A stretch of DNA of 64,000 nt from Nitrospirota bacterium (GCA_963705595.1 CAVPKD010000007.1:2640-66639), one strand, 5' to 3'; shown: positions 28,736-33,631, numbered from the stretch's first letter. Numbers and translations are program-made. The notes: a model not told the origin generated them from the letters alone.

Positions 28736-30098
28736 TCATTCGATCTCCAGCCCGTACTTCTTGAGTTTTCTCCAGAGCGAGACCCGGTCGATGCCGAGTA
28801 TCTGGGCGGCGAGGGTCTTGTTGCCGCCAACCTCGTTCAGCACCCACTGAATATAGGTCATCTTCCTGCTCTTCGAGCGAAGGGATCTTGCCTTCTTTTT
28901 TCCGGAAGGTTTTGATATTGAGCTCCCGCAGGTCCTCGGGAAGATGCCCCGTCTCGATGGTGGCGCCGTTCGTCAGCGCCACTCCCCGCTCGATGATGTT
29001 CTCGAGCTCCCGCACGTTCCCGGGAAAGTCGTAGTTCATGAGCAGGGCGATCACATCCTCGGCGATCTCGATCACCCCTTTTTTCATGAGCAGGGCGTAT
29101 TTCTTCAAAAAAAAGTAGGAGAGGAGGGGGATGTCGTCTTTCCGATCCGAGAGGGGCGGGATGCGGAGCGAGACCACGTTCAGCCTGAAATAGAGGTCTT
29201 GTCTGAAGCTGCCGGATTTCATGGAGTCGTGGATGTCCCTGTTCGTCGCGGCTACGAACCGTACGTCTACTTTCAACGACTCAGTGCCTCCGACGCGCAG
29301 GACCTCTTTTTCCTGGATCACGCGGAGGAGCTTTACCTGCATGGACGGCGGCATCTCGGTGATCTCATCCATGAAAAGCGTGCCGCCGGACGCCATCTCG
29401 AGAAGCCCTTTCTTCACGCTGTCCGCGCCGGTAAAAGCGCCTTTTTCGTGGCCGAAGAGCTCATTCGACAGCAGTTCCTCGGTGAAGGCGCCGCAGTTGA
29501 TGGCAAAGAAGGGGCCTTCGGCGCGCTTGCTGTTTAGATGGATGAACCGCGCGAAGAGTTCCTTGCCGGTGCCGCTCTCGCCGGTGATGAGCACGTTGCA
29601 GTCGGTCGGCGCGATCTGGCGCGCGGTCTCGAGGAGCTTCTGCATGTTCGGGTCCTGCGTGATGATCTTGACCTTGCCCTGGTAGCTTTCGAGCTGTTCC
29701 CGCAGTTGCCGGTTCTCGGTCTTGAGCCTGACCTTGTGCACGGCCTCCTTCACGACCTTGCGCACCTCTTCGAGCTTGAAGGGTTTCGCGATGTAGTAGA
29801 AAGCGCCGTGCTTCATGGAATCGACGGCGGAATCGAGCGTAGCGTAGCCCGTTATCATGATCACTTCGGTGTCAGGATAGAGCTCACGGCTTTTTTTGAG
29901 GATCTGCATGCCGTCGACCTTTTCCATGCGAAGGTCCGTGAGCACTACATCGAACTGCTGATCTTCGATCAGCTTCAGCGCGTTCGGTCCGCTCTGCGTG
30001 GCCGTTACCTCGTAGCCTTCCTTCTGCATGACGTGCTCGAGGTTCCGGAGCGCGATTCGTTCGTCGTCGATGATTAATATCTTTGCCGTGCCTTCCAT
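28736..30098 (-). CDS. NtrC-family sigma-54 response regulator (frameshift near 28865 before the HTH)
   Basis: REC DD/D/T/K, GESGTGKE, GAFTGA, FPGNVRELEN; alternate frame gives GGNKTLAAQILGIDRVSLWRKLKKY then stop at 28736. Confidence 0.92.
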
Positions 30099-30100
30099 GA

Positions 30101-31629
30101 TTACTGCTCCTTCACCGGCAGGCGTATCAGAAACGTCGTTCCCTTGCCGGGTTCGCTGTCCACGGCGATGCAGCCGTCGTGCTCTTCGACGATCTCATGC
30201 ACGATGAAGAGGCCGAGACCCGAACCCTTTCCCACGTCCTTGGTCGTGAAGAAGGGGTCGAAGATCTTCGGCACGATATCGAGCGGTATCCCGGAACCGC
30301 TGTCCCGTATCTCGATATCGACGGTGTCTTCTTCGAGCGTGCACTTGCCGCGATACTTCAGATAGTTGTAGATGCCGATCTTTTCGTCCTCGATATCGTC
30401 GATCGCACGGTGTTTCGCCGCCTTGATGGTTATCGTCCCCTCGTCCGCGGTGATCGCGTCAATGGCGTTCTTGATCAGGTTCAGGAAGGCCTGCTGGATC
30501 CGCTGCTTGTCAGCCACGATCATGATGTCATCGGCGACGGAGAGGTTGATCCCTATCTTCGTCGGCACCTGTCCTTTGACGAACTGGATCGTTTCCTCAA
30601 AGAGTTTTTTCAGCGACAGCTTCTCTTTTTTGAATTCCCTGTCCCGTGAGAAATCGAGCAGGGAACGGACGATATTCCGGGCCCGGTCCGTCTGGTCGTT
30701 GATCTGGGAGATGAGCTCTACCGAGAAGTCAGGGTTCAGGGGCCAGGGTCCGGCAGGCTGTTTCTCACGCGCTTCCTTGAACTCTTCCATCAGGATCTGG
30801 TTCGATGAAGAGATGTTCGACAGGGGATTGTTCAGTTCGTGCGCCACGCCGGACAGGAGCGTGCCGAGGGACGCGAGCTTCTCCGACTGGATCAGATGCC
30901 GCTCATGCAGTTCCAGCTCTTTCAGCATCTTGTTGAAGGCCTTTGTCAGCGACACGATCTCCCGGTCCTTCGAGTCGATTGCGATCCGCTCGAACTTGCC
31001 TTCGGCGATGACGCCCATGCTCTCTTCCAGTGATTTCAGCGGCTTCACCACCATCCGGGACAGGATCTGGCCGATGGCAATCACCGCGATGGAGAGGAGT
31101 ATGATGGAGACAATGAGGATATGTTGAGAATTGTTAAGGATCTGCTGGAGGCTTTTTCGCTCGGTCTTCGAAATATCTTCGGCAATGGTGATGATGTCTT
31201 TGCCGGTCACGCGGATATTTCCGGCGAGCATGGTCTTGCGGGCCGCGTTCTCTCTATGGAGACCCGCGTATTGCTCCATCATGTCCTTATAATTTTTCAG
31301 GCTGACCTGGAGGGTCGATATCTGCTCGGAGGATGCCACGGAAGTAAAGCCCGTGATGTTGCTGTCGATGACGTCCTGGGCCCTGCTCACGTACTGTGAC
31401 GTTCTCGTCATAGTCCGACCGCTGTTCGTAGAGGAAAAAGTTCTTCTCGAACCGCCTGATCTCGAGCGTGGTGTCGAAAAACTCGGATATGGCCTCGCCG
31501 AATATGATCTTCTTTTCGATGTATCTCAGTTCAAGGAAGGTGAACAACGGTCAGGCCGATGATCATGGCCACGATGGCATAGTAACCGAGCGTTATCTTC
31601 TGTCGTATGCTTGGCTTATAGTTGAACAT
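30101..31629 (-). CDS. Membrane sensor histidine kinase (TM, four-helix sensor, TM, HAMP, HisKA, HATPase; frameshifts near 31545 and 31400)
   Basis: [37 protein letters not shown]; N-terminus [15 protein letters not shown] reconstructed. Confidence 0.88.
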
Positions 31630-31632
31630 AGG

Positions 31633-33631
31633 TCATACCAGGGCCGCTTCTACGACGTCCGCGATGGTGTCGACGAGCCGGATATCGATGTCTCTTTTCA
31701 TGTCGTCGGACAACTCCTCGACGTCGGCCCTGTTGCGTGCGGGCACGATCACGGTCTTGACCTTTGCTCGCTTGGCCGCAAGGATCTTATCCTGGATCCC
31801 GCCGACGGGGAGGATGCGGCCCGTAAGGGTTATCTCGCCGGTCATGGCGACGTCACGCAGGGCCGGCCGACCGGTCAGGAGCGAGACGAGGGCGATAAGG
31901 ATGGTGATGCCCGCCGAGGGGCCGTCCTTCTGGATCGCGCCGGAGGGTACGTGGATGTGGATGTCGTGGTGCTCGAAAAAATCATCGGGGATGCCGAAGG
32001 TTCCGGCATTGCTCCTGATGTAGCTGAGCGCCGCCTGAGCCGATTCCCGCATCACGTCGCCGAGCGAGCCGGTGATGATGAGTTCTTTGTCGCCCTTCAT
32101 TTTGGCTGCCTCGACAAAGATGATGTCTCCGCCGGTCTCGGTGCGCACGAGACCCGTGGCTACGCCGATCCGGTCCTGTTCCTCGATCACCTCGAAATGG
32201 AATTTTTTTCTCCCGAGATAGTGTTCCACGGACTCAGGGGCTATGGTCACGACCTCCGGGCCCCCCGTATTCTGGAGCGTTTTCCGGGCGATCTTGCGGC
32301 AGACCGTGGCGATCCTTCTTTCGAGGTTCCGGATGCCCGCTTCATGCGTGTATTCCTGGATGATCTTTTGCACGGCCTCATCGGTAAAGACGACCTGGTT
32401 CGAAGACAGGCCTTTTTCCCGTATCTGTTTGGGGCAGAGGAACCGCAAGGCGATTTGTGCCTTCTCCTCCTGCGTGTAGCCCGCGAACTCGATGACTTCC
32501 ATGCGGTCGCGGAGTGGCGCGGGGATGGTGTCAAGCACGTTTGCGGTGAGGATGAACATGACGCTCGACAGATCGAACGGCACGTCAAGGTAGTGGTCTA
32601 CGAAAGAGCGGTTCTGCTCGGGGTCGAGCACTTCGAGCAGTGCCGAGGCCGGGTCGCCCTTGAAGTCGCGTCCGATCTTGTCGAGTTCGTCGAGCATGAC
32701 CACGGGATTGGCCGATTCCACCCTCCGGATTTCCTCGATGACCCTGCCTGGCTTTGCGCCCACATAGGTCCTCCGGTGCCCACGGATGTCGGCCTCGTCC
32801 TTCAGCCCGCCGAGAGCGATCCTCGTGAATTTTCTGCCGAGCGCCTGGGCAATGGATTTCCCGAGCGACGTCTTCCCCGTACCTGGAGGGCCCGCAAAGC
32901 AGAGCACCGATCCCTTGGTGATGGGCCTGAGCGATTTTTGGTCGACCGCCCGCTTTACGGTGTCGCGCACTTCGTCGAGCTTGAACGGTTTTGCGATATA
33001 GTGGAACGCGCCTTTCTTCATCGCCTCGATGGCCGAGGGGACGGTGGCGTAGCCAGTCACCATGATCACTTTAGTGTCGGGGTATTTTATCTTGACCCGC
33101 TCCAGGAGATCCATGCCGTCGATTTTCCCCATGCGGAGGTCGGTCAGGACCACATCGAACTCCGAAGATTCCAGCACCCGGAGCGCTTCTGCTCCGTCCG
33201 CTGCCGTCATCACGTCATAATTCTCTTTCACCAGGATGTGCGCCAGGTTTTTCCTCGCGATCTCTTCATCGTCGACGACCAGGACGCGAGCCTTTTTGTT
33301 CATCATGAGCACCTTGATCGCCAGGTGCTCCATGATCCGCTCTTTGATCTTGTCCAGGCCATAATGGTTTTCATTCAGGATGCGCTCGGCACGGACGATA
33401 TCGAGATTGTCTTCGGTTTTTTTGTTCCAGGGCAGGGAAACGAGGTAGTCGATGTAGGTGATGCCGATGGTATATTCTGCGGACGAGGGACTGATCCTGG
33501 TCAGGAGTTCAAGTTCCTGTTCTGCGATCTTTTGCAACAGGAGGGGGCATGTGCGCCGACGATATCTTCTGGCGAAGTTCTTCAATGATAAATTCCTGCT
33601 GCTGGTCTTCTGATTTTTTAAAGAATTTCAT
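31633..33631 (-). CDS. lon: Lon-type ATP-dependent protease with an inserted receiver domain and no LON N-domain (frameshift near 33535)
   Basis: [14 protein letters not shown] insert, [22 protein letters not shown] (Ser), KILAAKR (Lys); start MKFFKK at 33631 with AGGTG RBS. Confidence 0.9.

Follow-up and report, generated by a model that had tools for sequence, protein, structure and literature searches.

The window analyzed here is a stretch of 64,000 nucleotides from a Nitrospirota bacterium (GCA_963705595.1 CAVPKD010000007.1:2640-66639), with positions counted from its first letter. On its minus strand, the window carries a gene for a Lon protease into which a response regulator receiver domain (REC) is inserted (REC-Lon), followed by genes for a sensor histidine kinase, an NtrC-type sigma-54 activator and a HEAT-repeat protein. 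We read the first three as a module of the type described as DVU3303-3305 in Desulfovibrio vulgaris, in which one kinase would serve two paralogous receivers, one belonging to the sigma-54 activator and the other to a receiver-gated Lon branch, and we give this reading a probability of roughly 0.6. The reading is carried by the architecture of the protease, by its intact catalytic and phospho-acceptor residues, by the paralogy of the two receivers and by the conserved linkage of the genes. Residue numbers below refer either to the longest Lon open reading frame (ORF) of the window as assembled, which has 650 amino acids, or to P0002, an intact ortholog that is 97% identical to the window Lon. 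The coordinates of the features are collected in Table 1.

Architecture of the receiver-bearing Lon

A Pfam search of the 650-residue ORF identified Response_reg at residues 101-210, AAA at residues 228-368, Lon_lid, and Lon_C at residues 448-650. The original prediction, which had been made from the sequence alone, placed an intact receiver just before Walker A at about 32940-33290, and the Pfam match indeed falls within this interval. The key residues of a receiver are all present, namely the acidic pair D105/D106 (33273-33268), the phospho-acceptor D149 (33141-33139), T177 (33057-33055) and K199 (32991-32989). The Walker A motif, GPPGTGKT, is found at 32892-32869, and the catalytic dyad consists of S557 (31917-31915) and K600 (31788-31786), which are S572 and K615 in P0002 numbering.

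To place the receiver relative to solved Lon structures, we used P0002. Residues 16-109/114 of this protein align to residues 251-349 of Thermus thermophilus Lon (7p6u) and residues 236/241-665 align to 354-775, while the alignment to Bacillus subtilis Lon (3m6a) breaks at the same place. As the flanking P0002 segments match contiguous regions of canonical Lon, the receiver (about 125 residues) has been inserted cleanly, with the last N-terminal helix on one side and strand 1 of the AAA+ module on the other. REC-Lon has no counterpart to the first ~235-250 residues of canonical Lon. No Pfam match to the LON substrate-binding domain (PF02190) was obtained in the Lon ORF, and the structure alignment begins only at about Lon residue 251, in agreement with the earlier claim that the N-terminal substrate domain had been lost. 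The DNA upstream of the lon ATG holds neither a PUA-like N domain nor the long helix, being intergenic only and bordering a divergent operon. Canonical Lon genes are also retained elsewhere in the genome.

An AlphaFold2 (AF2) model of REC-Lon (pLDDT 71.7, pTM 0.42), in which the receiver folds well, was used solely for domain boundaries and linker lengths. The N-terminal helices span residues 8-25, 30-45, 51-65, 78-85 and 92-110. The last of these is joined by a 4-residue linker to receiver strand 1, and receiver helix 5 (218-234) is followed by a 7-residue linker and then by AAA+ strand 1 (242-245).

REC-Lon proteins form a family of more than 120 clusters at 74% identity or above, mostly of 665 amino acids, whose members are named 'endopeptidase La' and are found in metagenome-assembled genomes (MAGs) of Nitrospirota, Syntrophales and Betaproteobacteria. 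Among species-representative genomes, full-length matches were found in Nitrospirota/Thermodesulfovibrionales, in Desulfobacterales (including Desulfobacter vibrioformis DSM 8776), in Desulfomonilaceae and in Desulfohalobiaceae. Upon clustering at 50% identity, the family shrinks to very few representatives, and a search of the representative library gave just one other full-length cluster (P0122). Residue conservation was assessed in 27 family members (51-96% identity, P0002 numbering). The receiver residues D120, D121, D164 and K214 do not vary at all, and conservation of T192 is at least 90%; in the remainder of the protein, GPPGTGKT, D314/E315, Y289, N364, R376, S572 and K615 are invariant. 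The latter comprise the Walker A and B motifs, pore-loop Tyr, sensor, arginine finger and Ser-Lys dyad of LonA proteases.

Several long, high-scoring matches from the library were considered as distant REC-Lon proteins and rejected, as they are tandem-AAA Lons with no receiver. These Lon-like proteins (P0121, P0124, P0125 and P0127-P0130) have 890-1380 amino acids, two to three tandem AAA modules and a single Lon_C, and might be real or might be gene-call fusions.

The receivers of the protease and of the regulator

When the Lon receiver was compared with that of the downstream regulator by BLASTP, 67 of 116 residues were identical (58%), with 79% positives, no gaps and E = 4e-52. This matches the 55-60% identity that had been estimated from a hand alignment. 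In the whole genome, the two receivers are reciprocal best receiver matches (56-58% identity, 148-149 bits), while the next-best match among the 43-46 obtained per genome search reaches 40-46% identity and no more than 106 bits. In a tree built with 76 receivers, drawn from 32 loci, the regulator receivers fall into a single clade (support 98/87) beside the Lon receivers, and in no case do the Lon and regulator receivers of a pair group by genome. As the pairs do not group in this manner, the likeness of the two receivers points to a single old and retained duplication rather than to a recent copy. For the same reason, gene conversion was ruled out as the source of the similarity.

We then considered ten presumed kinase-contact positions, i.e., positions +3, +4, +7, +8, +11 and +12 of helix 1 after the acidic pair and four positions after the conserved Lys. 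At these positions, the Lon receiver reads IANLILPFKL and the regulator receiver IANLVMPFKL, such that 8 of 10 are identical. The genome set used for comparison contains 49 aligned receivers, that is, the pair and 47 others, and for the latter the median match is 3 and the highest 6. Across taxa, both Lon and regulator receivers retain the signature xA..NL.H.

A different phosphate donor for the Lon receiver should also be considered. The receiver might be served by another kinase or by acetyl phosphate, or might act unphosphorylated as a structural or oligomerization domain, with its similarity to the regulator receiver then reflecting common descent only. The age of the duplication, the 44-58% identity of the two receivers across loci and a contact match that drops to 5/10 in some taxa would all be compatible with such an arrangement, as would the Desulfobacter-type loci, where lon lies ~3 kb from the kinase-regulator pair. 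However, a pseudo-receiver is made less likely by the D-D-D-T-K residues, which are invariant or nearly so in the family; REC-Lon stays linked to one and the same kinase-regulator pair through several rearrangements; and the Lon receiver is both the closest paralog of the regulator receiver among the 49 and its best match at the contact positions. We consider a separate donor, or none, improbable. Rather, we infer from the sequences that one kinase is shared by both receivers. This idea, already raised in the original prediction, fits the single kinase of the module, the old receiver duplication and the match at the contact positions, as well as the mutant fitness data from D. vulgaris described below.

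In many relatives (L016, L020, L021, L022, L025, L028, L110 and L111), a second kinase and sigma-54 regulator pair is found directly after the target operon of the module. Its members are 28-35% and 46-48% identical to those of the first pair, and the contact signature of its receivers is ITHL.LPF[ND]L. In the genome of the window, the receiver with that signature is found on another contig (C10, ~18663).

Linkage and variants of the module

The order lon, kinase, regulator, HEAT, as originally described, is confirmed, with all four genes co-directional on the minus strand. The kinase contains, in order, a first transmembrane segment, a helical extracytoplasmic region of ~140 amino acids, a second transmembrane segment, HAMP, HisKA and HATPase_c. 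The regulator has the domains of the NtrC family, namely REC (~29751-30080), Sigma54_activat with GAFTGA, a lid and a Fis-type HTH_8. Divergent from these genes lies an operon, considered here as the target of the regulator, which encodes a 58-aa peptide, a universal stress protein (USP)-like protein, an 83-aa small membrane protein, a TauE protein and a tandem USP. A near-consensus sigma-54 element faces this operon. The element is called a promoter by its position only, as the pattern is not enriched across the window. On the lon strand, no sigma-54 element was found before lon. A sigma-70-like promoter lies there instead, identified by consensus match only, in a region where such matches are no more frequent than in shuffled sequences.

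Linkage of REC-Lon with the kinase, the regulator and the USP/TauE operon holds in about 30 Nitrospirota loci. In about 20 Nitrospirota loci, the target operon is divergent from REC-Lon, kinase and regulator, as in the window. In several Desulfobacterota loci, a kinase-regulator pair is likewise found near REC-Lon. The linkage also survives rearrangement: lon can lie within the target operon, directly after the peptide gene (L029 and L030), or at its head (L035). In L034, where the contig ends at lon, lon is also divergent from regulator-kinase, and in L041 the kinase-regulator pair is found at the far end of the operon. The HEAT gene had been listed in the original gene order. It follows the regulator only in the genus of the window (the window, L001 and L013) and, as such, is not part of the conserved module.

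Two genomes show that REC-Lon itself is an optional, accessory branch on a core of kinase, regulator and target operon. In G036, a complete one-contig genome from another family, regulator-kinase is divergent from peptide-USP-membrane-TauE-USP and REC-Lon is absent (L110, G036:C1:606001-626000). In G005, the gene between the peptide gene and the kinase is a decayed REC-Lon that contains stop codons and has suffered internal deletions, while its neighbors are intact (L111, G005:C29:5001-20000).

Relation to known systems

The original prediction pointed to a similar cluster in Desulfovibrio (DVU3298-3305), and such a cluster is indeed described by Rajeev et al. 2011 (PMC3333781). In D. vulgaris Hildenborough, these authors define DVU3303 (a Lon with a receiver), DVU3304 (a kinase) and DVU3305 (a sigma-54 regulator) as a "three-component system" and suggest that phosphorylation may be required for protease activity. 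DVU3305 binds its own operon and the upstream DVU3302-3298, encoding membrane and UspA-type proteins, at a shared intergenic region, as well as a site at the kdp potassium-uptake operon; the system is induced under high pH, heat and stationary phase, and orthologs are reported in Thermodesulfovibrio yellowstonii, Thioalkalivibrio and Dechloromonas (PMC3333781). The regulon is listed by Kazakov et al. 2015 (PMC4641369). Trotter et al. 2023 (PMC10102598) obtained pairwise cofitness above 0.9 for DVU3303, DVU3304 and DVU3305. In chlorate, mutants in the signalling genes gained fitness, while a mutant in the target transporter DVU3299 lost fitness (PMC10102598).

The link that we draw to DVU3303-3305 is based on the descriptions in these papers and on their statement of orthologs in Thermodesulfovibrio, a member of the Nitrospirota. 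The two loci share the three proteins and their order, a truncated and receiver-bearing Lon, and a sigma-54 target operon that runs divergently and codes for UspA-type proteins and membrane proteins, among them a putative anion transporter (of the TauE family here). The window differs in its phylum, in the HEAT gene appended within its genus only, in the TatA-like and Kup genes that come after the target operon and in the frame breaks of its assembly. A branched pathway from one kinase to both transcription and proteolysis has been in print since 2011 and so is not new. With the architecture and the hypothesis published in 2011 and genetic support added in 2023, the copy in the window adds no new principle. 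What the present analysis adds is that the receiver duplication is a single old one, that the two receivers have a common kinase-contact signature, that HEAT lies outside the module and that REC-Lon is optional and lost in some lineages.

Canonical LonA proteases, such as those of Escherichia coli, B. subtilis (3m6a), T. thermophilus (7p6u) and M. taiwanensis, are 55-59% identical to REC-Lon over the AAA+ module, lid and S16 domain, and the helical region that leads into the AAA+ module is kept. In contrast to them, REC-Lon lacks the PUA-like substrate-binding domain and the long helix and contains the inserted receiver. The best solved relatives of the Lon receiver are NtrC1-type receivers (Aquifex NtrC1, 1ny5/1zy2; E ~1e-21 to 1e-22). 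In activators of the NtrC1/DctD type, the receiver also directly precedes an AAA+ ring whose assembly it could control. In NtrC1 and DctD, however, a coiled-coil linker holds the off-state dimer, whereas in REC-Lon the linker has about 7 residues and the receiver is inserted rather than N-terminal; the output of REC-Lon is moreover proteolysis and not sigma-54 remodelling. Two-component control of AAA+ proteolysis is also exerted by RssB and CpdR, receiver proteins that serve as phospho-dependent adaptors of ClpXP. These are separate, substrate-delivering adaptors, while the receiver of REC-Lon is within the protease polypeptide itself. To our knowledge, there is no system in which direct His-Asp phosphotransfer control of an AAA+ protease within one polypeptide has been shown biochemically. 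The original prediction knew of no mechanistic study of this protein, and our literature searches likewise found no mechanistic or biochemical study of any receiver-Lon. The REC-Lon family can serve as a clean and widespread test case, covering Nitrospirota, Desulfobacterota and MAGs labelled Syntrophales and Betaproteobacteria.

Proposed mechanism and alternatives

In the mechanism that we propose, the membrane HAMP kinase would sense envelope or anion-related stress and phosphorylate both paralogous receivers. The sigma-54 activator would turn on the divergent peptide/USP/TauE/USP operon from its -24/-12 promoter. The second receiver, residing in a Lon without a substrate-recognition N domain, would gate proteolysis by its phosphorylation state. 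REC-Lon is an accessory branch added to the core kinase-regulator-target module. As the receiver lies at the very entrance of the nucleotide-binding fold, with the helix ahead of AAA+ strand 1 on one side and Walker A on the other, and is connected by linkers of only ~4 and 7 residues, a change in its state would in all likelihood act straight on ATP binding or ring assembly. That phosphorylation alters protease activity, and in which direction, is put forward more tentatively than the sharing of the kinase.

Some points weigh against this mechanism and should be considered together. The ten contact positions are presumed ones, chosen by reference to the HK853-RR468 complex and to covariation work. 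Within Desulfobacterota loci, the contact match between the two receivers is only 5-6/10, no better than that with a third neighboring regulator family. The AF2 model has low inter-domain confidence (pTM 0.42) and is therefore uninformative on the packing of receiver and ring. In D. vulgaris, part of the cofitness could be a polar effect, as lon is the first gene of the operon, and the opposite signs in chlorate are unexplained by a simple picture in which the system activates the operon. Finally, as the core module exists with no REC-Lon in G036 and with a decayed one in G005, the protease is not needed for signalling.

As the signs in chlorate are opposite and lon is found within the target operon in some loci, a feedback model stays alive. 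The Lon receiver could be mainly a phosphate sink that competes with the regulator, or REC-Lon could degrade the regulator, the kinase or products of the operon, with the branch being negative in either case. Such a role would suit the loss of REC-Lon in lineages where the two-component system and target operon persist. It would likewise suit the placement of lon inside or at the head of the target operon (L029, L030 and L035), which is typical of induced negative feedback, and the chlorate phenotypes, where loss of signalling genes raises fitness and loss of DVU3299 lowers it. The motif FAE[EA]GE at the N-terminus of both leading products of the target operon, together with a peptide gene that adjoins lon, points in the same direction. 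An opposing Lon, however, predicts opposite phenotypes for lon and regulator mutants, where the reported cofitness exceeds 0.9 (although polarity could mask this), and a pure sink needs no fully conserved ATPase and protease. A negative branch is, in our view, possible but on the doubtful side. The branched pathway, in which the activator and REC-Lon are both served by the kinase, is consistent with all of the evidence, while being neither new nor proven.

The motif deserves a description of its own. FAE[EA]GE-x2-(T/A)AR begins both the 58-aa peptide and the USP-like protein (window 33945 and 34182, plus strand; also L012-L035, L036 and L043), and in Desulfobacterales loci, proteins of 185-218 amino acids bearing this motif are found near lon. 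The peptide gene directly adjoins REC-Lon in every gene-order variant in which a peptide gene was found. As the motif is conserved and the peptide gene adjoins lon, one may speculate that the peptide and the USP-like protein are clients or adaptors of REC-Lon. In a stronger form, which we think rather unlikely, REC-Lon would be a phosphorylation-gated protease with dedicated clients, these being the two products of the co-regulated sigma-54 operon that start with the conserved FAE[EA]GE-x2-TAR helix, namely the USP-like protein and the 58-aa peptide. If this were so, a single kinase would both induce the client proteins and set their lifetime, in a self-contained 'transcribe and degrade' pulse circuit, and the motif would be a degron or adaptor handle that replaces the recognition role of the lost Lon N domain.

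The protein P0142 (568 amino acids, from the representative library) is a REC-Lon that ends after ~510 residues and continues in frame into the peptide-like sequence FAEAGEFDTAR. Its probable origin is either chimeric assembly or rearrangement at the divergent promoter.

Reading frames and assembly quality

As assembled, all three signalling genes are broken by single extra bases, located at ~33529 in lon, at 31550 and 31395 in the kinase and at 28864 in the regulator. The frame that begins at ATG 33631 stops after 40 codons, with the main Lon frame offset by one base, the kinase N-terminus is split over three frames, and the HTH_8 of the regulator is out of frame. Consequently, the kinase ORF as assembled (30101-31411) lacks the first transmembrane segment, with the true start at 31629, and the regulator ORF (28638-30098) ends in a nonsense tail beyond the true stop at 28736. 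The ends given in the original prediction, 28736 and 33631, are true gene ends only on condition that the four frame breaks, which that prediction had overlooked, are read through.

In a metagenome contig that is 95% identical to the window (L001), the genes are intact and encode 665, 508, 453 and 156 amino acids. Aligned with this contig over 5.8 kb, the window shows six extra single bases and lacks none. The same four coding insertions are also present relative to two genomes of the same genus (G001 and G002), and about 20 further one-base insertions, common to both of these comparisons, lie at 34.5-38.2 kb, including within genes of the divergent operon. When the four bases are taken out in silico, the resulting proteins of 665, 508 and 453 amino acids align to those of L001 free of gaps and at 95.8%, 94.3% and 98.5% identity, and no stops, deletions or rearrangements accompany the breaks. 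The genome comprises 3.6 Mb in 10 contigs and is 77.9% complete; a canonical lon on contig C10 is likewise split across frames. As three relatives lack the extra bases, about 20 similar insertions lie nearby and completeness is low with few contigs, the four breaks are very probably errors of long-read assembly, a judgement drawn from comparison with relatives.

The breaks could alternatively be real and the signalling operon a decaying pseudogene cluster, perhaps in connection with a neighboring IS110 insertion. Three adjacent genes are each broken, a 3.1-kb insert with an IS110 transposase lies directly downstream, and a decayed REC-Lon is known in G005. Yet all four breaks are of one kind, with the many alike nearby extending into another operon, removal of the bases restores gap-free proteins that are 94-98% identical to those of relatives, and 10 contigs with 77.9% completeness is what one typically sees when a long-read assembly has not been polished. 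A true pseudogene, that of G005, looks quite different, as it has stop codons and internal deletions. Decay of the operon is hence highly improbable. Programmed frameshifting and true gene decay were both rejected, given that ~20 similar insertions fill the neighboring genes and that completeness is low with few contigs.

Relative to three close relatives, single extra bases are frequent across 28100-38600 (four within the signalling genes and about 20 within the adjoining 4.5 kb), and probably across the whole genome, with many ORFs broken, including those of the divergent USP/TauE operon. As the assembly is full of such insertions, ORF-based readings anywhere in this genome need care.

Features and neighboring genes

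Table 1 Features of the REC-Lon locus, in positions of the 64,000-nucleotide window.
Feature	Position	Strand	Remarks
REC-Lon gene	31633..33631	-	true product very probably 665 aa; interrupted by an extra base at ~33529
Longest REC-Lon ORF as assembled	31633-33585	-	650 aa from TTG; N-terminus garbled
N-terminal helical region of REC-Lon, ~112 residues	33295..33631	-	equivalent to canonical Lon ~236-349; includes the helix before AAA+ strand 1
Inserted receiver (REC)	32956..33285	-	acidic pair, phospho-acceptor Asp, Thr and Lys all intact
Lon AAA+ module, lid and S16 protease domain	31636..32904	-	includes Walker B and pore-loop Tyr
Sensor histidine kinase	30101..31629	-	true product very probably 508 aa; extra bases at ~31550 and 31395
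NtrC-type sigma-54 activator	28736..30098	-	true product very probably 453 aa; extra base at ~28864
HEAT/PBS-lyase-type repeat protein, 156 aa	28177..28647	-	starts 88 nt downstream of the true regulator stop
Near-consensus sigma-54 -24/-12 element, TGGCACGGTAGTTGTA	33836..33851	+	faces the divergent target operon
Sigma-70-like promoter, TTGCAA-17-TAAAAT	33662..33690	-	~30 nt upstream of the lon ATG; consensus match only

Directly downstream of HEAT, a segment of ~3.1 kb (25057-28171) is missing from the 95%-identical contig. It carries an acyltransferase_3 gene (25203-26427, apparently frame-broken) and an IS110-family transposase (26833-27864), and its G+C content is lower (0.45-0.47). On the other side of the locus, TatA-like and Kup potassium-uptake genes come after the tandem USP (~37000-39000, plus strand; L012 8510-10051) in this genus and in several relatives.

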